A DNA stretch of 26,793 bases from an uncultured Lachnospiraceae bacterium. Its GTDB lineage: Bacteria > Bacillota > Clostridia > Lachnospirales > Lachnospiraceae. The stretch spans positions 1 to 26,793 of the forward strand of contig CATBCG010000046.1 in assembly GCA_949502025.1 (NCBI GenBank). Reading direction: 5' to 3'. Shown one piece after another: positions 3,301-24,704 of the stretch. The notes under the pieces are model-generated. The model did no database searches. It worked only from the letters and a program-made list of their open reading frames with translations, and was not told where the DNA came from. A program made the translations under genes and the position numbers. Numbering within the stretch: the stretch's first letter is position 1; the number at the start of each line of letters is the position of its first letter.

Positions 3301-4177
3301 CCGTATGAATATCGGACAGGTTTTGGAAATTCATTTAAGCCTGGCAGCCAGAGTATTAGGGTTTAAGGTAGCGACTCCGGTATTTGACGGAGCGAACGAG
3401 ATTGATATTATGGATACGTTGGAACTTGCAAACGACTATGTAAACACGCCGTTGGAAGAGTTCCAGGGAAAATATAAAGATATCCTGGCGCCGGAGGTTA
3501 TGGAATATCTGGTAGAAAATCAGGATTACCGGAAGGAATGGGAAGGCGTACCGATTGACAGCACCGGAAAAGTACGGCTGCGTGACGGACGTACCGGAGA
3601 ATATTTTGACGGCGCCGTTACGGTCGGTTTTATGCACTACCTAAAACTCCACCATCTGGTAGACGATAAGATTCACGCCCGTTCCACCGGGCCATATGCG
3701 CTTGTTACGCAGCAGCCACTCGGCGGTAAAGCCCAGTTCGGCGGACAGCGTTTCGGCGAGATGGAGGTTTGGGCGTTGGAAGCCTATGGCGCCGCCTATA
3801 CCTTACAGGAGATCCTGACGGTAAAATCCGACGATGTGGTCGGACGTGTCAAAACTTATGAAGCCATTATCAAAGGTGACAACATCACCGATCCAGGAAT
3901 CCCAGAGTCCTTTAAGGTATTATTAAAGGAACTGCAGTCCCTGGCTTTAGACGTTACCGTCCTCGACGAAAACGGAAATGAAGTTCGTATGACCGAAAAC
4001 ATCGACTACGGCGACGAAGATCTGACGCCGTTGATCGAAGGCGACGACGCGTTCCGCTTTGACAACGCTCCAATGGAAGCCGACGGTTTCCGCTCCGGCA
4101 CCGCGGAGGAACTAGAAGACGACTCGGTAATCAGCGGCTTTGAAGAAGAACTGGATGATTTTGATGATTATGAATAA
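353..4177 (+). CDS. rpoB: DNA-directed RNA polymerase beta subunit. The ORF track begins at GTG 341; ATG 353 is better placed relative to the AAGGGG Shine-Dalgarno. It carries a roughly 100-aa acidic C-terminal tail.
   Basis: Full-length beta-subunit hallmarks (rifampicin-cluster sequence [37 protein letters not shown]-like catalytic regions) and an operon position upstream of rpoC. Confidence 0.97.
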
Positions 4178-4563: not shown

Positions 4564-7500
4564 ATGTCAGAGACAGGAATAGAAAATGTTCAGGAAATGA
4601 CATACGATGCCATTAAGATTGGTCTGGCTTCGCCAGAGAAAATCAGGGAGTGGTCGCACGGTCAGGTTACAAAGCCAGAAACGATCAACTACAGAACCCT
4701 AAAGCCGGAAAAGGACGGGCTGTATTGTGAAAAGATTTTTGGACCAAACAAGGACTGGGAATGTCATTGCGGAAAATATAAGAAAATCCGTTATAAGGGC
4801 GTTGTCTGTGACCGTTGTGGAGTAGAGGTAACGAAATCTGCCGTCCGTCGTGAGCGGATGGGGCATATTGAGTTGGCTGCCCCGGTATCGCACATCTGGT
4901 ATTTCAAGGGGATACCGAGCCGGATGGGACTGATACTGGATTTATCTCCAAGAGTGCTGGAGAAGGTTCTGTATTTTGCGTCTTATGTTGTATTGGATAA
5001 AGGAGATACTGACCTGCAGTATAAGCAGGTTTTAACCGAAAAGGAATATCATGAGGCTTATGATAAATTCGGCAGCCGTTTTCGTGTCGGCATGGGCGCC
5101 GAGTCGATCATGGAGCTGTTAGAGGCGATCGATCTGGAGGCGGAATCAGCCGAGCTAAAAAAGGCACTGAAAGATTCGAGCGGACAGAAGAGAGCGCGTG
5201 TAATCAAGCGTCTGGAGGTAGTAGAGGCGTTTAGAGAGTCCGGAAACCGTCCGGAATGGATGATTTTAACCGTGATTCCGGTGATTCCGCCGGATTTACG
5301 TCCGATGGTACAGTTGGAAGGTGGACGTTTTGCTACTTCTGATATGAACGACTTGTATCGCCGGATTATCAACCGGAACAACCGTTTGAAGAGACTGTTA
5401 GAGCTGGGCGCGCCGGACATTATTGTGCGGAATGAGAAGCGGATGCTCCAGGAGGCAGTGGATGCCTTGATTGACAACGGGCGCAGAGGGCGTCCGGTCA
5501 CGGGACCTGGCAACCGGGCGTTAAAGTCTCTGTCTGATATGTTAAAGGGAAAACAGGGACGTTTCCGTCAGAACTTGCTTGGAAAGCGTGTCGATTATTC
5601 GGGACGTTCCGTTATCGTAGTCGGACCAGATTTAAAGATTTATCAGTGTGGTCTGCCAAAGGAAATGGCAATTGAGCTGTTTAAGCCATTTGTTATGAAG
5701 GAATTGGTTTCCAGAGGAACCGCGCATAATATCAAATCTGCTAAAAAGATGGTAGAACGGCTGCAATCCGAAGTTTGGGATGTATTAGAGGACGTTATCA
5801 AGGAGCATCCGGTGATGTTAAATCGCGCTCCTACTTTGCATAGACTTGGTATTCAGGCATTTGAGCCGGTGTTGGTAGAAGGAAAGGCGATTCGCCTGCA
5901 CCCATTGGTTTGTACTGCGTTTAACGCGGACTTTGACGGCGACCAGATGGCAGTTCATCTTCCGTTGTCGATGGAGGCACAGGCAGAGTGTCGTTTCTTA
6001 TTGCTTTCTCCAAACAACCTGTTAAAGCCGTCAGACGGCGGTGTGGTAGCCGTGCCGTCTCAGGATATGGTACTGGGAATTTATTATCTGACGCTGCAAA
6101 AGCCAGGTGATAAAGGAGAAGGAAAATATTTTAAAAATGTCAATGAAGCAATTTTGGCTTATGAAAACGGAGATATTACCTTACAGGCTATGATTAAAGT
6201 ACGCTGTACAGGTCGTAACGCTGAGGGAGTACGCGAGAGCCGGACGGTAGAATCCACGTTGGGACGTTTTATTTTCAATGAAAATATTCCGCAGGATATG
6301 GGCTTTGTCGATCGTACCAAGGAGGAAAACTTCCTTAAACCGGAAGTCGATTTCCTGGTAAAAAAGAAGGAGCTGAAAAGCATCCTGGAAAAGTGTATGA
6401 ACGCACATGGCGCAACGAGAACTGCCGAGGTTATGGATGCGATCAAATCTCTGGGTTATAAATATTCTACCCGTGCGGCAATGACGGTTTCGATTTCCGA
6501 TATGACCGTGCCGGAGAAGAAAAAGCAGATTTTATCTGATGCCGAAGCGACGGTAGAAACGATTTCCAGGAACTTCCGCCGTGGATTGATGACAGAAGAA
6601 GAGCGTTATAAGGCGGTTATCGAGACCTGGAAGGAAGCCGACGATGAGATTACGGAAGCGCTGTTGTCCGGTTTGGATAAATACAACAATATTTATATGA
6701 TGGCTCACTCCGGCGCCCGTGGATCTGACAAGCAGATCAAGCAGTTAGCGGGAATGCGTGGATTGATGGCAGATACGTCGGGACGTACCATTGAATTGCC
6801 GATTAAGTCAAACTTCCGTGAAGGCTTAGACGTATTGGAATATTTTATTTCGGCACATGGTGCCAGAAAGGGATTGTCCGATACGGCTTTGCGTACGGCT
6901 GACTCCGGATACCTTACCCGTCGTCTGGTTGACGTTTCTCAGGATTTGATTATCCGGGAAACCGACTGCTGTGAGGAAAAAGACGAGATTCCAGGTATGT
7001 GGATCAAAGGCTTTATGGACGGCAAGGAAGAGATCGAAAGCCTGGAAGAGCGGATTACAGGGCGTTTCTCCTGTGAGGATATCTATGACGACGCAGGTGA
7101 GTTGATTGTAAAGAAAAACCATATGATTACGCCGAAACGCGCGGCAAGGATTGTGGCTCGGAAGGAAATGGTGGAAGCCGGCAATCATGCAAAAGTAAAG
7201 ATCCGTACGGTGCTGACCTGTAAATCGCATATCGGAGTGTGTGCAAAGTGTTATGGTTCCAATATGGCGACCGGACAGCCGGTACAGGTAGGCGAAGCAG
7301 TCGGCATCATTGCGGCGCAGTCTATCGGAGAACCGGGTACTCAGTTGACGATGCGTACGTTCCATACAGGCGGTGTAGCGGGAGACGATATTACACAAGG
7401 TCTTCCTCGTGTCGAGGAGCTTTTTGAGGCTAGAAAGCCAAAGGGACTTGCGATTATTGCAAAATTCGGCGGACGGGTGACAATTAAGGATACCAAAAAG

Positions 7501-8274
7501 AAACGCGAAGTTGTCGTCACAAATGATGAAAGCGGCGAGGCAAAGGCGTATCTGATTCCGTATGGTTCCCGAATTAAGGTACAGGATAACCAGGTAATTG
7601 ATGCGGGCGACGAGCTGACCGAAGGTAGTGTCAATCCGCATGATATATTAAAGATCAAAGGTGTCCGTGCCGTACAGGATTATATGATCCAGGAAGTACA
7701 GCGCGTATACCGGTTACAGGGTGTGGAAATCAATGATAAGCATATTGAAATGATTGTCCGCCAGATGTTAAAGAAGGTACGGATTGAAAATAACGGAGAT
7801 ACGGATTATTTGCCGGGAACTCTGGTAGACGTACTGGAATACGAAGAATTAAACGAGCAGCTTTTGGAGGAGGGCTTTGAGCCGGCAGACGGCAAACAGG
7901 TGATGTTGGGAATTACCAAGGCTTCCCTGGCAACCAACTCCTTCCTTTCTGCCGCTTCCTTCCAGGAGACGACCAAGGTTCTGACAGAGGCTGCCATAAA
8001 AGGAAAGATCGATCCGCTGATTGGCTTAAAGGAAAATGTTATCTTAGGAAAGCTGATTCCGGCTGGAACTGGTATGAAGCATTATCGTTCGATTAAACTT
8101 GACAGCGACAAGCTTGAGGAAGAGGAAATGGAAGAATTGGAGCTGATGGAAATCGAAGAAGAACCAGACGAGGATTTTCTTTCCTTAGAGGAGGAAGAGG
8201 AGCTGGACGCTCTGGATGCCATGGTGGAAACAGCCGCTATGGAAGAAGAGTTCGTTTCTTTGACAGAAGAATAA
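4564..8274 (+). CDS. rpoC: DNA-directed RNA polymerase beta' subunit, with an acidic C-terminal tail
   Basis: N-terminal Zn-finger CHCGKYKK...CDRCGVEV, the NADFDGD catalytic motif, 1236 aa, and the RBS AAGGGAGA. Confidence 0.97.
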
Positions 8275-8296
8275 TTTAGAAACAGAAGGTTGTACA

Positions 8297-8330
8297 GGGC
8301 GGCACGGCGGGAAGCTGTGCCGCCTCGTTG
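8297..8330 (+). terminator. GC-rich hairpin (GGGCGGCAC / GTGCCGCC) after rpoC with a poor U-tract. Possibly a partial terminator or an RNA processing site.
   Basis: An 8-9 bp GC stem read from the sequence. It is followed by TCGTTGTAT, which is not U-rich. Confidence 0.35.
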
Positions 8331-8350
8331 TATCATAAGGAGAAAACATA

Positions 8351-9310
8351 ATGAAGATCGTTGTATTGGAACGAAACAGTGTAGGAACAGATGTGGATAT
8401 TTCCTGCTATGAGAAGCTAGGAGAAGTAACCGTGTATCCGAATACCGTAGCGGCAAACACTGCGGAGAGGGTAAAGGACGCTGATATTATCATTGCCAAT
8501 AAGGCGCCGTTAAACCGGGAAACGCTGGCAGAGGCAGAGCAGGTAAAGCTGATTTGTGAGTTTGCTACCGGATATGACAACATTGATTTGGAATATTGTC
8601 GGGAAAAAGGGATTGCCGTAGCGAATGTGGTGGATTATTCTACAGCGGCAGTTGCCCAGCACACGTTTGCCCTGACTCTTTATCTTTTGGAAAAACTGCG
8701 GCATTACGATGAATATGTAAAATCAGGAGCATATGCAGCGCAGGAACGTTTTTCTAATTTTGATTTGGCTTATACGGAGCTGGAGGGAAAGACCTGGGGA
8801 ATCGTAGGGATGGGACATATCGGGAAGCGGGTGGCAAAAATCGCGGAAGCCTTTGGTTGTCGGATTTTGTTTTATTCTGCTTCTGGGAACAGTACTTGTA
8901 CGAAATATCAGCGGGTAGATCTGGAAACGCTTTGCCGGGAGAGCGACTTTTTATCCCTGCATTGCCCGTTGACGGACAGAACGCATCATTTGATCAATGC
9001 CGACGCGCTACGGCAGATGAAACCGCAGGCAATTTTAATCAATGTAGCGCGCGGCGGAGTCGTTGATACACAGGCGCTTTATCAGGCTCTGACGGAAGGC
9101 TGGATTGCCGGAGCCGGACTGGATGTTTTAGAGCAGGAGCCGATCGCTGGGGGCAATCCGTTAGGAACGATTCAGGACAGCAGCCGTTTGATCATTACGC
9201 CTCATTTGGCATGGGCGAGTACAGAGGCAAGAGAACGAGTAGTGGCTGAGGTGTATCAGAATATTCAGGCATTTTTAGCAGGGGAGAAAAGAAACCTGGT
9301 AAATTTCTAA
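8351..9310 (+). CDS. D-isomer-specific 2-hydroxyacid dehydrogenase (glycerate dehydrogenase/hydroxypyruvate reductase-like), NAD-binding
   Basis: Rossmann motif GIVGMGHIGKRV, and the conserved INVARG and TPHLAW catalytic regions of the 2-Hacid_dh family. RBS AAGGAGA. Confidence 0.9.
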   Translation: MKIVVLERNSVGTDVDISCYEKLGEVTVYPNTVAANTAERVKDADIIIANKAPLNRETLAEAEQVKLICEFATGYDNIDLEYCREKGIAVANVVDYSTAAVAQHTFALTLYLLEKLRHYDEYVKSGAYAAQERFSNFDLAYTELEGKTWGIVGMGHIGKRVAKIAEAFGCRILFYSASGNSTCTKYQRVDLETLCRESDFLSLHCPLTDRTHHLINADALRQMKPQAILINVARGGVVDTQALYQALTEGWIAGAGLDVLEQEPIAGGNPLGTIQDSSRLIITPHLAWASTEARERVVAEVYQNIQAFLAGEKRNLVNF

Positions 9311-9330
9311 TTTTTTCACGTTCTTTTAAC

Positions 9331-9359
9331 TTGTATGCGAAAGGCAAATATGGTAAGAT
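9331..9359 (+). promoter_or_regulatory. Candidate sigma-A promoter for the xpaC-telA pair: TTGTAT, 17 nt, TGg-TAAGAT
   Basis: -35-like and extended -10-like hexamers with 17-bp spacing. No terminator lies between the dehydrogenase and this site. Confidence 0.35.
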
Positions 9360-9437
9360 AGAATCTGTACAGACGGAAAGCGAGAAGCAGCAAGCCGATT
9401 TGTCTGAATTGTTTTATAGCAAAGAAGGGAATCGTAT

Positions 9438-10850
9438 ATGGGAAGGAATGAATTTGCCAATCTGGGAGACGAGATCAAAGACGCCGTGCAGTCGGCTATC
9501 AACAAAGGGGATTTTGCTAAATTAAGGGCAGAAATCGGAGATTCGGTGAATCAGGCGTTTGACGAAATAAAACAGTCGCTTCAGGGAACTTGGAATGACA
9601 GCAATGTAAAGCAGCCAGGAAGCAAACAAAATGAAAATCAGGAAAGACAGAGTGGACAAGCTGGGCAAAACGGACAAGCCGCTCAAAACTACCGGAGAGA
9701 ACCAGCCAGGCAGCCTGGTCAGGCGGCGCGGCAAAACCAGGCGAGGAGAGCCTACTCTCAGGCAGCCCGCCCTGCCGGTACTGCCGGCAGAAGGATGTCC
9801 GACCAGGGAAGAAGCGGCGTACGTTCCGGGACAGAGGTAGAGCGGGTAAGCGGAACGATAGTAAACGCACGGAAGTCAAATCTTCCGGCATTGCCCGTAC
9901 GTCCGGTAGGAAAGGTAGGAGGAATCCTTTTTACGATATTCGGTTCGATTCTGTTAGGCTTAGGGCTGTTGGGTCTGATGCTTTTTACCAGTCTGGGACT
10001 GGTGACGGGAGGCGGGGATTCGCTATATTTTTTGGCAATCTTTTTAGGACTGCCGACAGCCGCTGCAGGAGCGTTGATGTTAAGCGCGGGACGTCTAAAA
10101 GCCAGGCGTCTTTCCCGGATGAACCATTATGTCAAACTGATTGGCACAAAAGGATATTGCGATATCAAGGAGCTGGCTTTAAAAAGCGGGCGTTCCGTTC
10201 GTTATATGATCAAAGATTTAAGACGGATGATTCGGCTTGGGATGTTTCCGGAAGGGCATTTGGACGATAAAAAAACCTGTTTTATGTTAGATAATAAAAC
10301 GCATCAGCTCTATTTGGAAATGATGCAGGCACAGGGAAAGGTGCAGGAGGAAGCGCCGTCCCAGGAGGAAAAACCGGAAGAAACCGAAGAGGATGCAAAA
10401 CAGGCGGCAGCGAGAAAAGTAGTAGAAGAAGGAAACGCTTATATCCAGCAGATCCGCCAGGCAAATGCAGCGATTCGAGGAGAGGAGATTTCGGCAAAAT
10501 TAGACAGGCTCAGTATGATAATGGATAAAATATTCCTACATATCGAAAGGCATCCGGAAGAGGTAGAGGAACTGCATCGGTTTATGGAATATTATCTTCC
10601 GACGACGCTCAAGCTGGTCAATGCGTACCAGGAATTTGACGCCCAGCCGGTACAGGGAGCAAATATCACAACAGCCAAACGGGAAATTGAGGAGACGTTA
10701 GATACGATCAATCAGGCGTTTGAACGGTTGTTTGACAATTTTTATGCAGATGCAGCGATGGATATTTCAACGGATATTGACGTGTTGGAAACGATGCTTG
10801 CACAGGAAGGGCTGACCGGGCATTCTTTTGAGGAAAAGAAAGAAGCGTAA
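9438..10850 (+). CDS. Membrane protein with two TM helices and a C-terminal XpaC-like domain (5-bromo-4-chloroindolyl phosphate hydrolysis protein family), preceded by a Q/R/G-rich N-terminal extension of about 150 aa
   Basis: Two hydrophobic helices (ILFTIFGSILLGLGLLGLMLF and YFLAIFLGLPTAAAGALML), a C-terminal domain I recognise as XpaC-like, and a position immediately upstream of a telA/yaaN homolog, as in Bacillus xpaC-yaaN. Confidence 0.6.
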   Translation: MGRNEFANLGDEIKDAVQSAINKGDFAKLRAEIGDSVNQAFDEIKQSLQGTWNDSNVKQPGSKQNENQERQSGQAGQNGQAAQNYRREPARQPGQAARQNQARRAYSQAARPAGTAGRRMSDQGRSGVRSGTEVERVSGTIVNARKSNLPALPVRPVGKVGGILFTIFGSILLGLGLLGLMLFTSLGLVTGGGDSLYFLAIFLGLPTAAAGALMLSAGRLKARRLSRMNHYVKLIGTKGYCDIKELALKSGRSVRYMIKDLRRMIRLGMFPEGHLDDKKTCFMLDNKTHQLYLEMMQAQGKVQEEAPSQEEKPEETEEDAKQAAARKVVEEGNAYIQQIRQANAAIRGEEISAKLDRLSMIMDKIFLHIERHPEEVEELHRFMEYYLPTTLKLVNAYQEFDAQPVQGANITTAKREIEETLDTINQAFERLFDNFYADAAMDISTDIDVLETMLAQEGLTGHSFEEKKEA

Positions 10851-10927
10851 GGGAACCGGCTATTTTAACAGGATGCAAATGAGAGAGTGGAGAAAATAAC
10901 GGAGAATAGGATGGGAGGAATTTAGAA

Positions 10928-12097
10928 ATGAACGAGGAGATCTTAAACATGGAGCAGGCTGCTCCGACGTTGACGTTTGAGCCATTTGCAGAGGCTGCTC
11001 CAAAGCCGGAGTTGGTTTTTGAGACGCAGCCGATAGAAGAGGCAAAGCAGCCGGAGGTTCCGGCATTTGACGAAAGCAGTCTGACGCAGGAAGAACGTAA
11101 AATGGTAGATGATTTTGCAGCAAAGATCGAGCTGCAAAATTCCAGTCAGATTCTTCAATATGGAGCGGGGGCTCAAAAGAAGATGGCAGATTTTTCCGAG
11201 TCGGCTCTGAAAAATGTACAGACAAAGGATTTGGGAGAAATCGGAAATATGCTTTCCGGAGTAGTTACCGAACTCAAAAGCTTTGATTTGGACGAGGAGG
11301 ATAAGGGATTTTTAGGCTTATTCAAAAAAAGTTCCAACAAAGTAACCGCCATGAAGGCGCGTTATGCCAGAGCAGAATCCAATGTCAACCAGATTTGTAA
11401 AGTGTTAGAGCAGCACCAGGTACAGCTCATGAAAGATATCGCGGTACTGGATAAAATGTATGAACTGAATAAGACTTATTTTAAGGAATTGTCGATGTAT
11501 GTGCTGGCTGGAAAAAAGCGGCTTCATCAGGTAGAGCAGCAGGAGCTTCCGGCTTTGCAGGAAAAAGCCAGACAAAGCGGCTTGGCAGAGGATGCTCAGG
11601 CGGCAAATGATTTGGCAGCTCTTTGCAACCGTTTTGAAAAGAAGCTGCATGACCTGGAGCTGACGCGGATGATTTCGATTCAGATGGCGCCGCAAATTCG
11701 TCTGGTGCAGGGCAACGATATTTCGATGACAGAAAAAATTCAGTCTACGATTGTCAATACGATTCCGCTATGGAAAAGCCAGATGGTGCTGGCACTGGGG
11801 ATTACTCATTCCGGTCAGGCTGCCAGGGCGCAACGTGAAGTGACGGATATGACGAACGAGCTGCTTAAAAAGAACGCGGCAGCCTTGAAAATGGCAACCA
11901 TTGAGACAGCCAAAGAATCCGAGCGTGGCGTAGTAGATATCGAGACCTTAAAGATAACCAACGAATCCCTGATCAGTACCTTGGACGAGGTAATGAGAAT
12001 CCAGCAGGAAGGTCGTCAGAAGAGGCGCGATGCCGAGCAGGAGTTAAGCCGGATCGAAACCGAGCTAAAAGGCAAGCTGCTTAGCTTACGAAATTAA
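10928..12097 (+). CDS. telA: TelA/YaaN-family toxic anion resistance protein
   Basis: 389 aa, with the TelA family signature along its length (SQILQYGAGAQKKMADFSE..., coiled-coil C-terminus). RBS GGGAGG. Confidence 0.88.
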   Translation: MNEEILNMEQAAPTLTFEPFAEAAPKPELVFETQPIEEAKQPEVPAFDESSLTQEERKMVDDFAAKIELQNSSQILQYGAGAQKKMADFSESALKNVQTKDLGEIGNMLSGVVTELKSFDLDEEDKGFLGLFKKSSNKVTAMKARYARAESNVNQICKVLEQHQVQLMKDIAVLDKMYELNKTYFKELSMYVLAGKKRLHQVEQQELPALQEKARQSGLAEDAQAANDLAALCNRFEKKLHDLELTRMISIQMAPQIRLVQGNDISMTEKIQSTIVNTIPLWKSQMVLALGITHSGQAARAQREVTDMTNELLKKNAAALKMATIETAKESERGVVDIETLKITNESLISTLDEVMRIQQEGRQKRRDAEQELSRIETELKGKLLSLRN

Positions 12098-12134
12098 GAT
12101 ATCAAAAATAAAAAAATCACAAAATTAAAAAAGG

Positions 12135-12178
12135 AAGGGGCGACCTGGCAAACAGGCTGCCCCTTAAACTGTCTTTTT
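12135..12178. terminator. Bidirectional rho-independent terminator between the convergent telA (+) and amidase (-) genes
   Basis: Stem AAGGGGC..GCCCCTT with an inner CCTG/CAGG, flanked by A-runs on the 5' side and T-runs on the 3' side. Confidence 0.7.
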
Positions 12179-12185
12179 AAAAGGA

Positions 12186-12980
12186 TTATAACTGTATGAT
12201 GGCAGTATCAAATCCCAGACCCTGTAGGTTGTCAGCGTACTGTCTGGCTTCTGCTAACGTATCAAAGGTGCCGGAGAGTACAGCGTATAAGCCGCCCAAG
12301 GAGATAATCGTAGCAGGACGGTTATACTGCAACAGACGATCGTATTGAGCGGCTGCATTGTCGTATTGGGCAAACAGACCGACTTGCACACGATACGCTG
12401 GGGTTTCCCGTGAGGAGGTCTGCCCGGAGGTACGGACGGAACTACCGGGCGAATCCTCGATTGCTTCTAAAACACCATCTGCAATACCACGGGCAATTTC
12501 TTCAAAACGTTCATCAAATAGCTGATTGTCCTGGTCATTGTTGATAAAGCCTGCTTCTACCAAAATAGCAGGCATCCGGGTACGGCGAAGAACCGTCAGA
12601 TTGGGACGAAGATCGACGCCTAAATTAAGAAATCCAAGATCTTCCAGATTTTCGTTGATATTTTCTCCCATTTCCTCCTTGATCCCCCCGTTGTTGTATA
12701 TCAAGGACTGCACGCCGGAATATCGGTTAGGGGTGACATTGGAGTTGCGGTGAATAGAAAGAAAATAGTCTGCTCCGCTGTTATTGGCAATCCGCACCTT
12801 TTCACTAGGAGTCTGATAGATGTCGTCCGTGCGAGTATAAACAACATCCTGTCCGGCATTTTCTAACATTGCTCCAACTTCTAGCGCCAGCGCAAGGGCA
12901 TCGTCCTTTTCCATTCTGCCTCGGTAGACGGCGCCGCTGTCACGTCCTCCATGACCGGCATCTATTACGATTTTTGCCAT
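12186..12980 (-). CDS. N-acetylmuramoyl-L-alanine amidase (Amidase_3) with a C-terminal SPOR domain and no signal peptide, resembling CwlC
   Basis: N-terminal KIVIDAGHGGRDSGA...SIHRNS amidase_3 motifs and a C-terminal SPOR-like YRVQVGLF...GLYAVLSGTF. Confidence 0.88.
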   Translation of the reverse strand: MAKIVIDAGHGGRDSGAVYRGRMEKDDALALALEVGAMLENAGQDVVYTRTDDIYQTPSEKVRIANNSGADYFLSIHRNSNVTPNRYSGVQSLIYNNGGIKEEMGENINENLEDLGFLNLGVDLRPNLTVLRRTRMPAILVEAGFINNDQDNQLFDERFEEIARGIADGVLEAIEDSPGSSVRTSGQTSSRETPAYRVQVGLFAQYDNAAAQYDRLLQYNRPATIISLGGLYAVLSGTFDTLAEARQYADNLQGLGFDTAIIQL

Positions 12981-13043
12981 TCAAACACTACCTTATAATC
13001 ATAGTTGCTATAATATATGCAGACAAAGGGAGATTGGCGACAA

Positions 13044-13073
13044 CAGCCCGATGGGAAAGTACCCATCGGGCTG
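13044..13073 (-). terminator. Perfect 12-bp hairpin (CAGCCCGATGGG / CCCATCGGGCTG) between the flotillin stop codon and the amidase start codon
   Basis: Read from the sequence. The downstream U-tract is weak, so it may be a partial terminator or a stabiliser. Confidence 0.5.
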
Positions 13074-13092
13074 TATAAAGTTTAGATAACGT

Positions 13093-14502
13093 CTATTTTG
13101 GGTCGTTCTCTTCAAGAGTAGCCGCCGCCATAGCATCGGCTTCCTCTTCTTCTAAGTTTTTCCCAAGAAATTCCGGCAGCTCCATACCTGCTTGACGGAA
13201 CAAGTCGTTTAACGGCGGGATGGATTTCATCATACCAGAAAGGAAATTGGCAGTTGCCGGCGAGCCTTCCTTGCCGCCAAGGGAATCCCAGACGGTTACT
13301 TTGTCGATCTTGATATTCTTGATAGCGTCTACCTGAATCTGCATAAGATCCTGAAGCTTGTCGGCTACCATCAGCTTTACGGCGGCGTTTGGATCTCCGC
13401 CCGCAGCCTTTACCAGCTCGTGCATACCATCTGCCTGCTTTAAAAGCATTTCCTGGATACCACGCGCCTGCGCTTCCATTTTAGAGAAAATCGCATCAGC
13501 CTCACCTTTTGCCAGCCTTCTGGCTACTTCGGCTTCCGCTTCTGCCTGGATTTCCGCTTTTTCCTTTTCAATCTGTGCCTTGACGATGATATCTGCCTGC
13601 TGGGTAGCTCGTTCTAACTGCGCACGGGTTTCTTCTGCCTTTTGCTGTGCCGTATATGCCTCTTCCTGTGCTTTAGCCGCCTGTACCGCTTCTGCAGCAA
13701 CCGCAATACGCAACGCCTCAGCCTCTTTTTCACGACGGGAAGCGTCGGATTGTGCTACTTCGATTTTAGCTTCATTTTCACCCTGAATCGCAGTAGCGTC
13801 AGCCGCCGCTACCTGAATACGCTGGTCGCGTCGGGCATTTGCCTGACCGATTTCACCATCGCGATCCTTTTCTGCCACACTCTTTTTGGCGTCGTTAATC
13901 GCCTTAGCGGCTGCTTCTTTACCAAGCGCCTCTATGTAACCAGACTCGTCGTTGATATCGGTAACGTTGACGTTGATCAGCCGAAGACCGATTTTTTTCA
14001 GTTCGATTTCCACGTTGTTGGAAACGGAAATAAGGAATTTATCTCTATCTGCATTGATTTCTTCAATGTCCATAGTGGCGATAACAAGACGGAGCTGCCC
14101 TAAAATGATATCCTTTGCAAGCTCCTGAATCTCTCCTAGCTGGAGCCCTAACAGACGCTCTGCCGCATTCTGCATGACACCGGTCTCTGTAGAAATACCA
14201 ACGGTAAAACGAGATGGAACATCTACCCGGATATTCTGTTTGGAGAGGGCGTTACGTAAATCCACGTTAATGGAAATCGGAGTAAGATCCAGATACTGGT
14301 AGGATTGTATCACTGGAACAATAAAGGCAGCGCCGCCATGAATACATTTGGCAGAGCGGTTTTCTCCGTTTTTATCGGTTCCTACCTTACCATAAATGAC
14401 CAATACTTTATCGGACGGGCATTTGCGGTAACGAGAGAGAATGGCAATCAGACAGGCAAATAAAACCAGGACGGCGACACAAATAGCAATCAATATTTCC
14501 AT
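13093..14502 (-). CDS. floT: Flotillin-like SPFH/band-7 protein (FloT/YuaG-like) with a long EA-rich coiled coil
   Basis: N-terminal TM segment plus SPFH domain, followed by the characteristic alanine/glutamate-rich flotillin repeats. RBS AAAGGAGAA. Confidence 0.9.
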   Translation of the reverse strand: MEILIAICVAVLVLFACLIAILSRYRKCPSDKVLVIYGKVGTDKNGENRSAKCIHGGAAFIVPVIQSYQYLDLTPISINVDLRNALSKQNIRVDVPSRFTVGISTETGVMQNAAERLLGLQLGEIQELAKDIILGQLRLVIATMDIEEINADRDKFLISVSNNVEIELKKIGLRLINVNVTDINDESGYIEALGKEAAAKAINDAKKSVAEKDRDGEIGQANARRDQRIQVAAADATAIQGENEAKIEVAQSDASRREKEAEALRIAVAAEAVQAAKAQEEAYTAQQKAEETRAQLERATQQADIIVKAQIEKEKAEIQAEAEAEVARRLAKGEADAIFSKMEAQARGIQEMLLKQADGMHELVKAAGGDPNAAVKLMVADKLQDLMQIQVDAIKNIKIDKVTVWDSLGGKEGSPATANFLSGMMKSIPPLNDLFRQAGMELPEFLGKNLEEEEADAMAAATLEENDPK

Positions 14503-14598
14503 AATAGTTTTCTCCTTTTTTAGTAGGTTTGTCAGCAGCTTGAAAAAAGACTGGCTGCTGCAAAAAAGTAGTTATGTAGCGTCTGTAGAAATACACGA

Positions 14599-15240
14599 TT
14601 ACTGCTCCGGCTCCACCAATACGGCATCCCCGCGAACATCGATAATCCGGACACGGCTGCCGGTCGGCAGCGGAACAGAGGAATCCGTGATCGCATCGTA
14701 TTCGTTAAAATGACCGCCAATCGTGATGTTGACTTTTCCATGACCATTTCCCTTGGATGGAACGGTCAGATAAACCGTACCACTATAGCCGAGCGTGGAG
14801 ACGATGGATACGCTGCCGTCGTCTGCCAGCTTGGAAAGCGCGCGGATTAGGAGGGCAACCAGGAACATAAACAAAAAGCCCAACATAATCGCCAAAGCCA
14901 TAGACAGAAACGAGGAAGCAAGTACTCGTGTAAAAGCAAGACCGCTCCAGCCAAAGACACAGAAAAATGCAATAATGCCCTGGAAAGTAAAGAGCCGCAT
15001 TGTCCCAAAATCACCAGGCGCTGTACCATCCGGAGCAAAATCTGTGCTATCTGGTGAAAACGCTCCTCCGTCTGTATCCAGATCCAGACCGGATGTATCG
15101 CTTGGGTTAAAGCTGGAACCATCCTCGCCCCAGCCTAAAAACAACAGTACCATCTGTAAAATCAGAACAAGAGTAGACGGTACGGCGATACAGTAAAGAA
15201 TTTTTTGCAACAGGGAAAGGGATTCCCAAAATACCTGCAT
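14599..15240 (-). CDS. NfeD-like membrane protein (YuaF-like) with a C-terminal OB-fold and an acidic D/S/G-rich linker. The start is probably the internal ATG at 15240 (RBS GGAGGTG) rather than the ORF-track start at 15264.
   Basis: Multi-TM region followed by a VRIIDVRGDAVLVEP beta-barrel tail. It lies directly upstream of flotillin in the same orientation, as in yuaF-floT. Confidence 0.8.
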   Translation of the reverse strand: MQVFWESLSLLQKILYCIAVPSTLVLILQMVLLFLGWGEDGSSFNPSDTSGLDLDTDGGAFSPDSTDFAPDGTAPGDFGTMRLFTFQGIIAFFCVFGWSGLAFTRVLASSFLSMALAIMLGFLFMFLVALLIRALSKLADDGSVSIVSTLGYSGTVYLTVPSKGNGHGKVNITIGGHFNEYDAITDSSVPLPTGSRVRIIDVRGDAVLVEPEQ

Positions 15241-15438
15241 AATGCCACCTCCATTGTTTCGCATTTGTTTGATAGAAAACGTTATAAGGGGAAACTATAA
15301 CGGCTTCTATGATTAAGAATCAGGGAAATTTATCTGTGTAAATTCCGCTTACAATAAGTATACCATAATCTTCAAAAAAGTCAATAAAGCTAATGAGATC
15401 TTAATAAAAAATTTATTGGAAAATTTATAAAAAATGAC

Positions 15439-15467
15439 TTGATTATCTTTGCAAAATCTGGTATACT
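15439..15467 (+). promoter_or_regulatory. Consensus-like sigma-A promoter: TTGATT, 17 nt, TATACT
   Basis: Read from the sequence, about 75 nt upstream of the XRE-family regulator gene. It is divergent from the nfeD-floT operon. Confidence 0.6.
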
Positions 15468-15543
15468 CTCCCTGTAAATCGTATTTACACAAGGCGAAAT
15501 ATGCCTTTGTTACAGATCTACAGATGCGAAAGGAGCGGATAGC

Positions 15544-16107
15544 GTGGGAAGGGCAGAACTAGGAAGACGCCTAAAAGAAGCCAGACTCGCCAGAAGGATG
15601 ACACAGAGCGAGGTAGTGGGGGATTTTATTACCCGTAACATGTTAAGCCAGATTGAAAGTGGCAGCGCCATGCCATCTGTCAAGACGCTGGAATACTTAT
15701 CGAAGAGGCTGGAGATACCATTTGAACAGCTGATGGCAGATGAGGAGAGAGAAGAAACGACGCTGGAGCTGCTGCTTCGTGCAAAAGAGGATTTTAAAAA
15801 AGGGAGATATGAGGAGGTTATCAATCTTTTAGAGCAGGACAATGAAAAAATAACACCTATTTATGATGAGATAGGAGCGATACTGGCACGCTGTTATCTG
15901 CAGTTGGCATTACAGATGAGGGATAAGATGGACGGTAAATGGGCTGTGGAGCATCCAAAAGAGCTGCCAGTGCTGGAACATCGCCTGACCGCCTATGCAA
16001 AAGCAGCCGGACGATATGCCAGCGAAGGAATCTATGCCAGTAAGGAAATCCGAATGGAAGCTCTTGTACTCGAACATTTGAGAGAGGATACGGAACGTTA
16101 CTTATGA
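15544..16107 (+). CDS. XRE-family (Cro/C1-type) helix-turn-helix transcriptional regulator with a C-terminal domain of unknown function. GTG start.
   Basis: HTH signature LKEARLARRMTQSEV...SQIESG...PSVKTLEYLSKRL. RBS AGGAG. Confidence 0.85.
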   Translation: MGRAELGRRLKEARLARRMTQSEVVGDFITRNMLSQIESGSAMPSVKTLEYLSKRLEIPFEQLMADEEREETTLELLLRAKEDFKKGRYEEVINLLEQDNEKITPIYDEIGAILARCYLQLALQMRDKMDGKWAVEHPKELPVLEHRLTAYAKAAGRYASEGIYASKEIRMEALVLEHLREDTERYL

Positions 16108-16149
16108 GACATCTGGAGTTTGATGCTCGTCTTTGCGAACGAATATTTA

Positions 16150-16190
16150 AGGCAGGAAAGCTTTGAAGTGGCTTTCCTGCCTGTTTCATT
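16150..16190. terminator. Bidirectional rho-independent terminator (perfect 12-bp stem AGGCAGGAAAGC / GCTTTCCTGCCT) between the convergent XRE (+) and glycosyltransferase (-) genes
   Basis: Perfect stem read from the sequence, followed by GTTTCATTTT. Confidence 0.75.
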
Positions 16191-16206
16191 TTAAAACGCT
16201 ATCTTT

Positions 16207-16965
16207 TTATTTTTTACGAAAGATTTTCCGCTTAGCACGGATCATAGTAAAGTATCCTACAGCTATGATTCTGCCCAGACGCTGACCGAATATCCGGTTG
16301 ATCTTCTGAATACGTTTGGTTCGTTCTTTTTGTTCCGGGGTATGCCAGGAGGCATGATACCAATGTATGCTGTATGTATTTTGGGTTATTTTCAAACGGT
16401 TGTTCGTAAAACAAAGAGGGGCAAAATATTCAGCGGGAAATATATCGATCCCTTGTATGGACTGATATTTTCCATTGAGCTGCAAGCCATAAGATTTCAG
16501 TAATTCTGTAGTATAAAAGGGAGAAGGTACAATATTTGTCGTACCGTCTTCCTTATAAAAAGAAAGTGAATGGTACAAATCCCGCATCTGTTTTAAAATT
16601 TCATTTCCCGGCTCCGCGCCAAATCCTAAGCCCAGTGCTACGAACATCTGACTTTCAAAGCCCAGAAAAGCTTTACAGTTTAACAAGCTATCCAGGCTTT
16701 TTAACAATTCCACATCTGTGTCCAGATAGATCCCGCCTTCCCGGTAAATAATATCCAAACGGGCATAATCGGGGACGAAAGCCCACATTTTGGCTTCATA
16801 TGCCTGCGCCATATAAGTGCATACGGAAAAATCATAATTAGATTCATTCCATTCTATAATCTCATAATCCGGGCAGAATTTTTTCCAGCTTTCGGCGCAT
16901 GCTTTGTTTTTCTCCGGCATGGGTTTATCGCCAACCCAGAAATAATGTATTTTTTTTGGAATCAT
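16207..16965 (-). CDS. Glycosyltransferase with a DXD sugar-binding motif (GT32-like, Gly_transf_sug family). AT-rich relative to its neighbours.
   Basis: KIHYFWVGDKPMPE...YARLDIIYREGGIYLDTDVE, including the DXD motif. RBS GAGGGAGA. Confidence 0.85.
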   Translation of the reverse strand: MIPKKIHYFWVGDKPMPEKNKACAESWKKFCPDYEIIEWNESNYDFSVCTYMAQAYEAKMWAFVPDYARLDIIYREGGIYLDTDVELLKSLDSLLNCKAFLGFESQMFVALGLGFGAEPGNEILKQMRDLYHSLSFYKEDGTTNIVPSPFYTTELLKSYGLQLNGKYQSIQGIDIFPAEYFAPLCFTNNRLKITQNTYSIHWYHASWHTPEQKERTKRIQKINRIFGQRLGRIIAVGYFTMIRAKRKIFRKK

Positions 16966-16979
16966 ATAAGGGTCTCCCT

Positions 16980-17348
16980 CTAATATCGTATTATTTTTTT
17001 TATGATTTTGCTCAGAACCTGATAGTGGTTGGGAAAAGTAAAAAACAAAATCATTTTTCCAATGCTTTTGATATCTCGTGCGTTTCGCCGGATAAATTTT
17101 TTGTCCTGGATCGTCGTCCCTTCTTGTTCAGACAGTTGACATACCCCTATCATCTGCCGAGCCAGATAACTGGTCAGGATATTGTGCTGGTATCTAGTTA
17201 AGCCAAATCTCCGGTAATAATCCTCTAATTGAAAAAGTATTTTCTTTTTTTGAAAACGACCGAAGGGAATAGACAGGCAGCAAAACTTTTCTGCGTCGCT
17301 ATTCTCTCTGGTACATAAGCCGTCCAAAGGCTTTCTAAAAAATAGCAT
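16980..17348 (-). CDS. Hypothetical 122-aa protein. Its stop codon lies 14 nt upstream of the glycosyltransferase start, and it is AT-rich.
   Basis: Only an ORF whose position suggests coupling to the downstream gene. There is no recognisable domain and no clear RBS. Confidence 0.3.
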   Translation of the reverse strand: MLFFRKPLDGLCTRENSDAEKFCCLSIPFGRFQKKKILFQLEDYYRRFGLTRYQHNILTSYLARQMIGVCQLSEQEGTTIQDKKFIRRNARDIKSIGKMILFFTFPNHYQVLSKIIKKIIRY

Positions 17349-17726
17349 GAAAAAACCGACTCTTTTTAGGAATCCTTCGTTTTAATATAGCGTTTTTTCC
17401 CGTTCTTGTCAACGGGGTGCTGCATGAGATGTCAAAAATCTGCATGAGATGCAGATCAGCAAAAGAGGAAGCCCCCAGGATGCACATTCAGCTCTATCCT
17501 TGCATATGAATTAGCTGACTTTGCTGTCATAGAATAACACTCCTACGGCGTCGTATTCCGTTTTCATTTATTCTTTTTCCATGCGGTGTGCTGGTATTTG
17601 GGCTTGCAGGGGTTCAGGCGGCATATTAAGGTCTTTTTGAGATAATCAACCATTTTCAATAACAACACAGATTAAAATCAGAAATAAAATCGGAAAAATA
17701 TAGAAAATAGCAGAAAGAAAAGACAG

Positions 17727-17770
17727 CGGATGCAACACTTTTTATAAAATGTTGCATCCGCTGTTCTATG
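17727..17770. repeat. Long palindrome CAGCGGATGCAACA-CTTTTTATAAAA-TGTTGCATCCGCTG in the ORF-free region upstream of csrA. It is copy 1 of a paired motif.
   Basis: A 14-bp perfect stem plus an AT-palindromic loop, read from the sequence. Confidence 0.6.
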
Positions 17771-18023
17771 TTATATATCGGCTGCTGTTTTTATTTCTTT
17801 AGAGTCATTTTATACTTTTTTGAAATTTTTATCTTAAAGTGCGTGAAGCCGCATTTATTCAGGTTTTTTCTATCTTATGTATCCCTATAAAAAAGTTTGT
17901 GATGAAGAAGGAGAAGCGAAACAGGATATCAGAATGAAACTAAGTGAATCGTACAAAAATCTATTTTTTCACTAAGAATTTAAGAAGCAGGACTTTAAAA
18001 AATCCTTATTTTATGCGCTTTTG

Positions 18024-18062
18024 CGGATGAATGCAACATTTTATAAAAAGTGTTGCATGACA
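18024..18062. repeat. Second copy of the TGCAACA-TTTTATAAAA-TGTTGCA palindrome (GGATGAATGCAACATTTTATAAAAAGTGTTGCATGA), about 40 nt upstream of the csrA RBS
   Basis: It shares the GGATG..TGCAACA..TTTTATAAAA..TGTTGCAT core with the 17727-17770 copy. Confidence 0.55.
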
Positions 18063-18089
18063 ACTTTTGTAAAAGGAAGGAGGCTTTTC

Positions 18090-18380
18090 ATGCTGAACCT
18101 TACGGTAAAGCCGGGAGAATACTTTGTCATTGGAGAGGATATCCGGGTGATTTTTGCAGGCGGTACGGCTAACAACGCCAGAGTCATGATCGATGCGCCG
18201 AGAAGCTACAACATTGTTCGCGGAAAGGTACTAGAGCAGTCGGAAGAGGGAAGCTACTATGTAGAGCCAGAGATTCCAAAGGAACGGCTAAAAAGCTTTC
18301 AACGGCAGCAGAAGAGACAGAGACAGCAAGCAGAACAAAAACGTCGGGAACAAAAACAGCAGGAAATATCGGCTGTATAG
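18090..18380 (+). CDS. csrA: CsrA-like carbon storage regulator (divergent) with an unusual basic and Q-rich C-terminal tail. The true start is probably ATG 18090 (RBS AGGAGG) rather than the ORF-track start at 18021.
   Basis: Alignable to CsrA: VIGEDIRV ~ IGDDIEI; MIDAPRSYNIVRGKVLE ~ GINAPKEVPVHRREVYE. It lies immediately upstream of flagellin. Confidence 0.65.
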   Translation: MLNLTVKPGEYFVIGEDIRVIFAGGTANNARVMIDAPRSYNIVRGKVLEQSEEGSYYVEPEIPKERLKSFQRQQKRQRQQAEQKRREQKQQEISAV

Positions 18381-18607
18381 CGTTTGCAAAGTAAGAGCAA
18401 TACGAAGTTGTAATAGTAGTTGGTAATATGCAGTACAATATCCGCCTGTCAATATCTGTACGGAGATATTAGGAAAGCCGCTTACAAAGCAGGAGTTTCC
18501 AGACCGGAGGGCATATCGGTACGGGGTATGCAGGGATGAGGTAGTGCTTATTATAAAGAAGCGTGTCCTGGACTCCTTATAAAAGGAAGAAAGGGCAAAG
18601 ACAAGAA

Positions 18608-18656
18608 AGCAGGAACGGATTCCTGAACAATTTAAACACATGGAGGTAAGATTATG
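18608..18656 (+). promoter_or_regulatory. Predicted CsrA-binding sites in the flagellin leader: the hairpin CAGGAA-CGGA-TTCCTG presents GGA in its loop, and a second GGA overlaps the Shine-Dalgarno (CATGGAGG)
   Basis: Sequence pattern only, by analogy with the B. subtilis hag leader, which has two CsrA sites, one of them overlapping the SD. Confidence 0.4.
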
Positions 18657-19562
18657 ATTATTCAACACAACATGCCAGCGGCAAACACAAACAGACAGTT
18701 AGGGATTACGAATGGTAATCTGCAAAAATCTACAGAAAAGCTTTCTTCCGGGTATCGGATTAACCGTGCGGGCGATGACGCAGCAGGACTTTCCATTTCC
18801 GAAAAAATGCGTGGGCAGATTCGTGGTTTGAATCAGGCTTCTACTAATGCGCAGGATGGTATTTCCATGATTCAGACGGCAGAAGGTGCTATGAACGAAC
18901 TCCATTCTGTGGTACAGAGAATGAGAGAACTGACGGTTCAGGCTGCAAATGATACAAACGTAGCAGAAGATAGAATGGCAATTCAATCGGAAATTAAGCA
19001 GTTGTCAGAGGAAATTGATCGTATTGCACAAAGCACAGAATTTAACACGATGAAGCTATTAAATGGAGATTATAGCGAGGATGGAGAACGTGGAAAGCTG
19101 ACTCTTCAGGTTGGCGCTAATAACAGTAGTACAGATGTATTAGACGATGGAGATCAAGTAATTAAATTTAGCTTGAATGCTATGACTACTGATGTAATTG
19201 GCGGGGAAACCGGAACAGTATCTGCATTATTTATGCTTACAATTGACGATGCAACAGGTTTTGAAGACGCTGACATAGCAGCTTCTATAGCAGCAGATTT
19301 GGACATTTTAGATGAAGCATTAAAGTATGTTTCTGATGAACGTTCTAAATTGGGTGCTATTCAGAATCGTTTGGAACATACCATTGCTAATACAGATAAT
19401 ACCGCTGAAAATCTGCAGGCAGCAGAATCCCGTATCCGTGACGTAGATATGGCAGAGCAGATGGTAGATTACAGCAAGGACACTATCCTTCAGCAGGCAG
19501 CGCAGTCTATGCTGGCTCAGGCAAATCAGCAGACACAGGGTGTTCTGGCGCTTCTTCAGTAA
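18654..19562 (+). CDS. fliC: Flagellin, a short form of 302 aa that lacks a large variable domain
   Basis: N-terminal IQHNMPAANTNRQL...KLSSGYRINRAGDDAAGLSISEKMRGQIRGLNQAS, and C-terminal ...ILQQAAQSMLAQANQQTQGVLALLQ. Confidence 0.95.
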   Translation: MIIQHNMPAANTNRQLGITNGNLQKSTEKLSSGYRINRAGDDAAGLSISEKMRGQIRGLNQASTNAQDGISMIQTAEGAMNELHSVVQRMRELTVQAANDTNVAEDRMAIQSEIKQLSEEIDRIAQSTEFNTMKLLNGDYSEDGERGKLTLQVGANNSSTDVLDDGDQVIKFSLNAMTTDVIGGETGTVSALFMLTIDDATGFEDADIAASIAADLDILDEALKYVSDERSKLGAIQNRLEHTIANTDNTAENLQAAESRIRDVDMAEQMVDYSKDTILQQAAQSMLAQANQQTQGVLALLQ

Positions 19563-19617
19563 GCAATTTGTCTGAAAAGGGACAGGGTTATTCTAAGACA
19601 CAACACATACAAAAAAT

Positions 19618-19653
19618 GGGGAGCTTCCGGAAAGGAGGCTCCTTATTTGATTT
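19618..19653 (+). terminator. Rho-independent terminator after flagellin (GGAGCTTCC-ggaaa-GGAGGCTCC followed by TTATTTGATTT)
   Basis: A 9-bp stem including one G-U pair, followed by a U-rich tail. Confidence 0.8.
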
Positions 19654-19870
19654 GACAGAACTTGTCGGTTGCCAGGTTATCTATTTCTGTAGATGGTAAG
19701 GCTTGCCTGTTTCGATTGGTTCCAAATCATTCACTCTTGATAGTAGCCATAACAAAAAATAAAAATCCAATTATGTAGTTTTCTGCCTCTTCTTGGAACA
19801 GTGTCACAGCAGGAATCAAAAGAATGATGAAGGACGGGCGTATAAATTTGTAAAAAATGGTGTAAAATTC

Positions 19871-19899
19871 TTGACAGAAGAAGGAATAAGTGCTACACT
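19871..19899 (+). promoter_or_regulatory. Sigma-A promoter for the str operon: TTGACA, 17 nt, TGc-TACACT
   Basis: Read from the sequence, about 70 nt upstream of rpsL. Confidence 0.65.
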
Positions 19900-19967
19900 G
19901 ATATGGCATGTCAAAAACGATGTGTTTTTGCTGCAAAAGGAAAATGAATGACAGGAGGTGAAAATTA

Positions 19968-20387
19968 ATGCCAACTTTTAATCAGCTAGTGAGAAAGGGC
20001 AGACAAACGGTAGAAAAGAAGTCAACGGCACCTGCGTTGCAGAAGGGCTTTAACTCTCTGCATAAGCGTGCGACTGACATTTCCTCTCCACAGAAGAGAG
20101 GCGTTTGTACCGCGGTAAGAACTGCTACTCCGAAGAAGCCGAACTCCGCTTTAAGAAAGATTGCCAGAGTACGTCTTTCCAATGGTATCGAAGTGACGAG
20201 CTATATTCCGGGTGAAGGTCACAACCTTCAGGAGCATAGCGTTGTCCTGATCCGTGGCGGCAGAGTAAAGGACCTTCCAGGTACCAGATATCATATCGTT
20301 AGAGGTACTCTTGATACCGCAGGCGTTGCCAAGAGAAGGCAGGCCCGTTCTAAGTACGGCGCAAAGAGACCGAAGGACGCAAAATAA
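19968..20387 (+). CDS. rpsL: 30S ribosomal protein S12
   Basis: Unmistakable S12 sequence, including the [10 protein letters not shown] and [10 protein letters not shown] regions. Confidence 0.98.
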
Positions 20388-24665: not shown

Positions 24666-24704
24666 TCTTTGACTAGCAAGTAATTAGTAAAAAGCTGGAT
24701 TTTA

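Follow-up and report, generated by a model that had tools for sequence, protein, structure and literature searches.

A lineage-specific gene mosaic between rpoC and rpsL in a mouse-gut Lachnospiraceae species, with a putative promoter-inversion switch ahead of csrA and flagellin

Why 11.7 kb of DNA should lie between rpoC and rpsL is the question raised by a contig of an uncultured mouse-gut Lachnospiraceae species (GCA_949502025.1, CATBCG010000046.1, positions 1 to 26,793 of the forward strand; this whole stretch is called the window). As in the ancestral layout seen in the rpoBC-ybxF-str region of Bacillus subtilis, rpoC and rpsL of the window are co-oriented neighbours, but here 11.7 kb intervene between rpoB (341-4177) and rpoC (4564-8274) on one side and rpsL (start at 19968, followed by rpsG, fusA, and tuf) on the other. 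Pfam and NCBIfam matches revealed that the gap is filled by eleven genes (8351-19562), confirming the first-pass annotation, which had listed ten or more intervening genes in mixed orientations, among them a dehydrogenase, xpaC-telA, an amidase, floT-nfeD, a regulator, a glycosyltransferase, csrA, and flagellin. We consider it probable that this block is a lineage-specific mosaic in the spacer between the rpoBC and str operons, with a promoter-inversion switch ahead of csrA and the flagellin gene fliC. The block would have been accreted or rearranged stepwise between two co-oriented, independently promoted essential operons, its left two-thirds (8351-16107) representing long-resident chromosomal genes for cell-envelope upkeep and its right third (16207-19562) a flagellin module composed of a GT32 glycosyltransferase gene, a gene remnant, and a switch-csrA-fliC cassette.

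The putative switch lies in the gap upstream of csrA, where the first-pass annotation had noted a 740-bp stretch free of open reading frames (ORFs). The stretch is real (741 bp, 17349-18089) but not empty, as a repeat-bounded promoter element lies inside it. A 28-nt repeat, ATGCAACACTTTTTATAAAATGTTGCAT (17730-17757), recurs as its exact reverse complement (28/28) at 18031-18058, 32 nt upstream of the csrA start codon, so that the window contains two matches where 0.02 would be expected by chance. The repeat has a lox-like layout, in which 8-nt arms (ATGCAACA and TGTTGCAT) flank a 12-nt asymmetric centre, and because this centre is not symmetric the two copies are truly inverted relative to each other. 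Known sites of tyrosine recombinases, such as loxP and FRT, are likewise built as a dyad around an asymmetric core. Between the repeats lies a putative invertible segment of 273 bp (17758-18030), and 17 nt inside the left repeat sits a consensus match to a sigma-28 (SigD/FliA)-type promoter, TAAA-N15-GCCGATAT (17775-17801, minus strand), which is the single match in the window (0.04 expected) and reads leftwards, away from csrA-fliC. The left repeat together with 7-nt flanks forms a terminator-like hairpin with a 19-bp stem followed by a U-rich run (17723-17764, minus strand); a folding energy of -31.6 kcal/mol was computed for the predicted OFF transcript, which then runs into CUUUUCUUUC, and the stem extension is kept in L099, a locus of a sister species. 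Flipping the segment in silico placed the promoter just upstream of the right repeat, reading into csrA, and abolished the stem extension, while no plus-strand terminator was found between the right repeat, csrA, and fliC.

These features suggest how the element would work. In the present orientation, the promoter would fire outwards into the strong hairpin and U-tract (OFF). A small tyrosine recombinase would exchange strands between both sites and flip the segment, after which the promoter, now about 45 nt upstream of the right repeat, would read into csrA and fliC (ON), probably driving both genes, and CsrA would in turn control the translation of flagellin in the manner known from Bacillus. 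The position of the minus-strand genes orf122 and GT32, downstream of the OFF-oriented promoter, could also be taken to indicate a switch with two outputs, leftwards into orf122-GT32 now and rightwards into csrA-fliC once flipped. Such an arrangement appears quite improbable, given that the -31.6 kcal/mol hairpin and U-tract directly follow the predicted start, that orf122 and GT32 have a near-consensus sigma-70-like promoter of their own (TTGACA-17-TATATT, 17412-17384, minus strand), and that L099, L101, and L107 contain no gene oriented to receive an outward transcript.

Related elements were found in other Lachnospiraceae. Homologues of CsrA led to L099 and L100 and then to L101-L106, the contigs of a recombinase homologue led to L107 and L108, and a profile scan of metagenome contigs yielded 80 more loci, mostly from the human gut. 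When an inverted ATGCAACA-N12/13-TGTTGCAT pair no more than 400 nt upstream of csrA was required by script, 54 loci were retained, comprising the window and 53 others. A flagellin gene follows csrA in every one of these loci whose contig extends far enough, and the called promoter motifs all lie no more than 60 nt from a segment end and face outwards, with a sigma-28 element at a window-like position in L099, L101, L107/L108, L111, and many others. In the sister species represented by L099 and L100, the same repeats, with one mismatch, bound a 285-bp segment with the promoter in the same position and orientation. In another species (L101-L106), 30-nt perfect repeats with the same arms and a different centre surround 818 bp, which hold a 192-amino-acid (aa) Phage_integrase-family gene and lie directly upstream of csrA, flagellin, and flagellin-glycosylation genes. 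Overall, a 192-aa PF00589 recombinase is encoded inside the segment in 42 of the 54 loci and just outside a promoter-only segment of 230-235 bp in nine, and the remaining three (the window, L099, and L100) have no nearby recombinase. The repeat centres differ between species and agree between both arms of each locus. As a side observation, an ORF for a Cas12f1-like/TnpB C-terminal fragment occurs in L101-L105 (4772-5143), 4 kb upstream of the switch locus.

Comparison between strains revealed that homologous segments really invert in five further groups at species level. L107 and L108 have collinear flanks (93-99% identity) but an inverted 2.2-kb repeat-bounded segment, so that the sigma-28-like promoter faces csrA in L108 (ON) and points away from it in L107 (OFF). 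A further four pairs of ON and OFF loci with collinear flanks were verified by blastn (L188 vs L195/L183/L193/L200; L145/L153; L149/L169; and L197/L200), and they include the short promoter-only type, which is like the architecture of the window. Across the 54 loci, 36 were in the OFF orientation and 5 in the ON orientation, with 13 left without a call. The beginning of contigs L106 and L110 at, or about 26 nt from, a repeat, and the location of many homologues on contigs of about 1 kb, may reflect assemblies breaking where both orientations coexist.

The inversions also bear on a simpler explanation of the 28-nt near-palindromes, namely that they are operators for a dimeric regulator (e.g., the neighbouring XRE protein) or two terminator hairpins. 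Each site is indeed near-palindromic, with 24 of 28 positions self-complementary, the left site forms a terminator-like hairpin, and an XRE regulator gene lies 1.6 kb away. Nevertheless, this explanation is extremely improbable, as in five groups sites of this type enclose segments whose orientation physically differs between strains, the sites co-occur across loci with a tyrosine recombinase gene and not with XRE, the asymmetric centre is always inverted between both arms of a locus, and a dyad around an asymmetric core is also found in loxP and FRT.

The recombinase of the related loci belongs to the tyrosine recombinase superfamily, as indicated by its PF00589 matches and its catalytic residues, with R42, H140-x-x-R143, H166, and Y175 invariant in ten aligned members. 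Its homologues number in the thousands and are nearly all exactly 192 aa long. Among the NCBIfam models, the family matches Xer and FimB/FimE below the cut-offs only; the L101 recombinase aligns nearly over its full length with the FimE and FimB models at 34.2 and 25 bits vs cut-offs of 222 and 221, respectively, and because these scores are far below the family cut-offs it is not regarded as a FimB/FimE member. Not every member of the 192-aa family sits in a recognisable switch. The P0054 recombinase (83% identity to that of L101; L112-L121) was considered as a switch member and set aside, having neither ATGCAACA repeats nor csrA. It adjoins a methyltransferase gene and a methyl-accepting chemotaxis protein (MCP) gene, and all ten of its contigs end 170-235 nt after the recombinase gene; these loci may have a different site type or an assembly break.

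On the output side, the window encodes a CsrA of 96 aa (18090-18380, plus strand; also present in the gene calls of L082-L090) and a flagellin of 302 aa with Flagellin_N/C domains (18654-19562, plus strand), and in most of the 54 loci the order is switch, csrA, flagellin. The CsrA protein scores 60.3 bits against a Pfam gathering score of 27, but 26 bits against the NCBIfam equivalog cut-off of 73, and because it falls below the latter it appears to be a divergent paralogue. In the fliW-csrA-hag region of B. subtilis, CsrA adjoins flagellin and represses its translation at GGA sites (cited in PMC3720852). The window likewise has csrA beside its flagellin gene, but this csrA is a divergent paralogue without an adjoining fliW. 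Inspection by eye of the fliC leader (18590-18653) revealed a hairpin, CAGGAACGGATTCCTG, with a GGA loop, and ACATGGAGG at the Shine-Dalgarno; the hairpin and the Shine-Dalgarno GGA are kept in L099 and L101. Judged by sequence, the GGA sites of this leader appear similar to the pair of CsrA sites in the hag leader of B. subtilis.

A sigma-28 promoter directly upstream of fliC was also considered and rejected, as no sigma-28 motif was found in the csrA-fliC spacer of 36 loci. About 100 nt upstream of fliC, a different motif, GCTTATTATAAA, is conserved in several species and often preceded by CCYRGGG (window 18540-18555; L099 around 2030-2050; L101 around 10505-10520). Furthermore, the central domain of the flagellin (18944-19309) varies between strains that are otherwise more than 99% identical; the alignment with L084 is lost in this region, and the products are 300, 302, or 307 aa long.

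The switch family is well supported, and activity of the copy in the window is putative: we infer that this copy still flips, which would require a recombinase encoded elsewhere in the genome. Several observations weigh against this. No recombinase gene or remnant was found in the 26.8-kb window by Pfam or by tblastn with the family recombinases, and a search of 16900-17800 for remains of recombinases or other proteins of the family, not aimed at a fliW relic, gave nothing at E<=50. All 12 contigs of the window species are OFF, as are L099, L100, and L203, which represent two other recombinase-less species, and a search of metagenome contigs for flipped alleles by the exact 28-mer returned 0 matches; because only the OFF orientation has been seen in recombinase-less species, the window copy could be locked. 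Moreover, the sigma-28 promoter is a consensus match rather than a mapped transcription start, and the GCTTATTATAAA motif might act as an RNA element or as a second promoter that does not depend on the switch. The short contigs L202 and L203, from the same or a sister species, were considered as candidates for an ON allele, and both proved to be OFF.

These observations could also be explained if the element of the window were a fossil, formerly invertible and locked OFF after recombinase loss, with csrA-fliC permanently silent or otherwise driven. Such a history would explain why neither a recombinase nor its remnant lies nearby and why all 15 contigs from the three recombinase-less species are OFF, and the conserved motif upstream of fliC might then serve as an independent promoter. 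We regard it as unlikely, though far from negligible, since the repeats are still complementary (28/28 in the window, 27/28 in L099, and 27/28 in L203), and since L099 and L203 retain the repeats, the promoter, and the flanks of the terminator stem although their segment interior has diverged beyond alignment, which argues for continued selection. In addition, the OFF state also predominates (33 OFF vs 5 ON) where flipping has been proven, and the action of a recombinase in trans on several switches has been established for RecV in Clostridioides difficile (PMC5386303). Flipping of the window copy by a recombinase encoded at a distance would therefore have a precedent.

The RecV-dependent flagellar switch of C. 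difficile is the closest known system. This switch (Cdi4) comprises 154 bp with 21-bp inverted repeats and is inverted by the tyrosine recombinase RecV, which is encoded elsewhere and serves several switches (PMC5386303); it is situated in the 5' untranslated region of the early flgB operon and acts post-initiation through Rho (PMC7446863). The window resembles it in having a short, putatively invertible DNA (273 bp, 28-bp repeats) upstream of flagellar genes in a gut Clostridia host, with a recombinase that could be encoded elsewhere. Unlike Cdi4, however, the segment of the window carries a sigma-28 promoter and lies upstream of a late csrA-flagellin pair, its repeats are unrelated (AAGTTRCTATWTTACAAAAAA in Cdi4 vs ATGCAACA-N12-TGTTGCAT in the window), and most relatives of the window hold the recombinase in or beside the switch. 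In the Hin/hix system of Salmonella, a serine recombinase acts on an invertible segment that carries the promoter of a flagellin operon, whose product FljA represses the other flagellin. The promoter inside an invertible segment, the recombinase inside the segment in most relatives, and sites with internal dyad symmetry are common to both systems, whereas the family described here is of the tyrosine type (PF00589, R..HxxR..H..Y signature), has a CsrA paralogue in place of the co-transcribed regulator FljA, and, in the window copy, lacks a recombinase gene within the segment. The fimS element of Escherichia coli has 9-bp repeats, a sigma-70 promoter, and fimbrial target genes; it is similar in its tyrosine recombinases of about 200 aa with the catalytic domain only and in a promoter segment of roughly 300 bp, but the family of the window targets flagellin and its recombinase scores far below the FimB/FimE cut-offs.

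Inverted repeats around a promoter and mixtures of ON and OFF states in gut populations are also features of the invertons reported by PhaseFinder and DeepInverton, and inverton surveys have found flagellar and motility genes to be enriched downstream of invertons (PMC11602134). Individual loci of the csrA-flagellin switch family may already be in inverton catalogues. A literature search found no switch in Lachnospiraceae that combines csrA-flagellin, sigma-28, ATGCAACA sites, and a 192-aa recombinase, with incomplete coverage that does not amount to proof of novelty. We put forward tentatively, as a possibility somewhat short of probable, that gut Lachnospiraceae possess widespread, undescribed, portable repeat-sigma-28-repeat-csrA-fliC cassettes flipped by a dedicated 192-aa recombinase. 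Because the arms are shared and the central spacers are locus-specific, one enzyme could flip several cassettes independently. If so, recombinase-less cassettes like that of the window would be flipped too, without cassettes recombining with each other, and the flagellins, as immunodominant antigens, would come under combinatorial ON/OFF control. Flagellins of Lachnospiraceae act as dominant antigens in Crohn's disease and as ligands of TLR5. A switch upstream of csrA-flagellin in many mouse and human gut species, mostly OFF in assemblies, would offer a concrete mechanism by which commensals control their flagellins in the gut. It could be tested from existing metagenomic reads by relating orientation ratios to host inflammation, immunoglobulin A (IgA), or diet.

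The origin of the surrounding block was also analysed. Ten independent assemblies (L081-L090) are 99.1-100% identical to the window with unchanged gene order, among them the NCBI contig L082 (GCA_949501885.1), from a metagenome-assembled genome (MAG), which is 100% identical across 16.8 kb, and a 969-bp contig (L202) spanning the gap and csrA alone (window 17443-18411) agrees with the window there; the arrangement is thus not an assembly artefact. The closest genome to the window is a wild-mouse gut MAG, L003, with 98% and 96% amino-acid identity in RpoB and RpoC, respectively.

Synteny was examined in the 80 loci whose RpoC C-terminus is closest to that of the window, nine of which were too short to score. 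Of the 71 informative genomes, 30 are contiguous and 41 carry unrelated cargo at the junction. The rpsL gene follows rpoC after 227-947 bp in 30 of the 80, after 1.4-2.9 kb in seven, and after 6.1-7.7 kb in five, and is absent within 6-10 kb in 29; these fractions are not family-wide frequencies because sampling favoured relatives of the window, which tells against leaning on them too heavily for the mosaic interpretation. In the other interrupted loci, the cargo after rpoC varies by lineage and is unrelated to that of the window, including a class II ribonucleotide reductase (RNR) in Anaerocolumna and, elsewhere, CotH with a response regulator, a GH5 cellulase, an MCP-PilZ protein, LytR, and ABC transporters. 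A large clade comprising Mobilitalea, Anaerotaenia, Herbinix, and many MAGs has conserved genes for phosphoglucomutase, SPFH, TPM, zinc-ribbon, PspA, and methyltransferase proteins after rpoC; the phosphoglucomutase-SPFH-PspA set was seen in L001, L002, L005-L009, L012, L016, L017, L019, L022, and L052, and is a second membrane-stress gene set at the junction that holds telA and floT in the window.

In the RpoC neighbour-joining tree, the window, L003, L015, and L049 formed a small clade in which all members are interrupted, and contiguous rpoC-rpsL loci were scattered widely outside it. Any content of the block is shared, among the 80 loci, by L003 and L015 only. L003 has the left part, from the dehydrogenase through nfeD (71-99% aa identity), where its contig stops, and L015 has xpaC-telA alone; these two genes are encoded directly after rpoC in L015 (51% and 70% aa identity) and also in L003 (71% and 97%). 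As L003 shares dehydrogenase-nfeD and L015 only xpaC-telA, the left 8 kb was probably built stepwise from resident genes. The first-pass annotation had proposed an inserted rather than ancestral arrangement, which family-wide conservation of the gene order would have contradicted; instead, gene order varied across loci, indicating that the rpoC-rpsL junction has been opened repeatedly and that the present arrangement is not ancestral. The textbook adjacency of rpoBC and str is thus often broken in Lachnospiraceae.

At the right border, rpsL has its own promoter (TTGACA-17-TACACT, 19871-19899, plus strand), which marks the right limit of the inserted material. This promoter (TTGACA-17-TAYAMT), about 95 nt upstream of rpsL, is kept in position in 13 relatives, whether rpoC is adjacent or not. 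The spacer may tolerate insertions because the two operons are separate transcription units. At the left border, 76 nt separate the rpoC stop from the dehydrogenase start, without an intervening terminator. As for the promoters and terminators that the block had been said to possess, motif counts did not exceed those of shuffled sequence, with 24 promoter-like motifs vs 17.7 +/- 4.6 in shuffles and 12 terminator-like motifs vs 12.1 +/- 3.4.

Composition and mobility features were then weighed against acquisition of the whole 11.7 kb between rpoC and rpsL as one horizontally acquired genomic island. In favour of such an island, the block is missing from nearly all relatives, its genes lie in mixed orientations, and the GC content falls to 0.37-0.40 around 16.2-18 kb. 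The AT-richer glycosyltransferase segment described in the first-pass annotation is real, as the GC content is 0.402 in GT32 and 0.379 in orf122, compared with 0.47-0.495 in the genes of native composition, and fliC is the only other AT-richer gene of the block (0.427; GC at third codon positions, GC3, 0.35). However, the genes in 8351-16107 (GC 0.47-0.495, GC3 0.47-0.54) are indistinguishable from rpoB, rpoC, fusA, and tuf and serve housekeeping envelope functions, and the presence of xpaC-telA alone after rpoC in L015 points to stepwise build-up. No integrase, transposase, or other mobility gene was found by Pfam among the eleven block genes and their flanks, and no tRNA gene was detected in the window by ARAGORN. 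The first-pass annotation had suggested looking for direct repeats between 8275-8350 and 19570-19960; a search of 8000-20200 found none bridging the borders, the direct pairs being short (14-18 nt) and at chance level. A single island is therefore very improbable. The block is an ordinary lineage-specific rearrangement, and of the earlier proposal of insertions or a lineage-specific island in a genomic hot zone, the hot zone and the lineage specificity are retained, whereas a single acquired mobile island is not.

The left two-thirds of the block begins with a D-2-hydroxyacid dehydrogenase gene (8351-9310, plus strand; Pfam 2-Hacid_dh_C/2-Hacid_dh), which scores 391 bits against the NCBIfam PRK08410 cut-off of 389 and has 85% aa identity in L003. 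It is followed by a gene pair (9438-12097) encoding an XpaC-like protein (9438-10850, plus strand; PF10112) and TelA (10928-12097, plus strand; PF05816). On the minus strand, Pfam identified genes for an Amidase_3+SPOR protein (12186-12980), a flotillin (13093-14502; its NCBIfam FloT match is below the cut-off), and an NfeD-like protein (14599-15264). These three genes (12186-15264) likely form one nfeD-floT-amidase operon, have 89-99% aa identity in L003, and are native in composition (GC 0.487-0.495). An XRE-family helix-turn-helix (HTH) regulator gene (15544-16107, plus strand; Pfam HTH_3/HTH_19) completes this part.

A terminator-like hairpin with a 13-bp stem (16150-16182) lies between the convergent XRE and GT32 genes. 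The GT32 glycosyltransferase (16207-16965, minus strand; Pfam Gly_transf_sug) is presumably related to flagellin. Its neighbour orf122 (16980-17348, minus strand) is an orphan ORF of 122 aa with just five homologues, all of them fragmentary and next to truncated GT2 genes in an unrelated setting; it is therefore probably a gene remnant, and was dropped as a clue to function.

Outside the block, an Eco57I/N6-methylase gene directly after tuf (24991-26187) is very AT-rich (GC 0.333, GC3 0.256), and at the same site strain L081 has a different set, consisting of an Eco57I-like gene and BsuBI/PstI endonuclease fragments. This region (24666-26285) represents a restriction-modification islet that varies between strains, and no other DNA in the window is as clearly foreign. 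At the other end, an Rfam match to group II intron domain V/VI (56-127, plus strand; 45.1 bits vs a gathering score of 40) precedes the rpoB promoter region by about 70 nt. Because homology with L003 begins only at position 164 of the window, this intron 3' end seems to have been inserted in the strain of the window.

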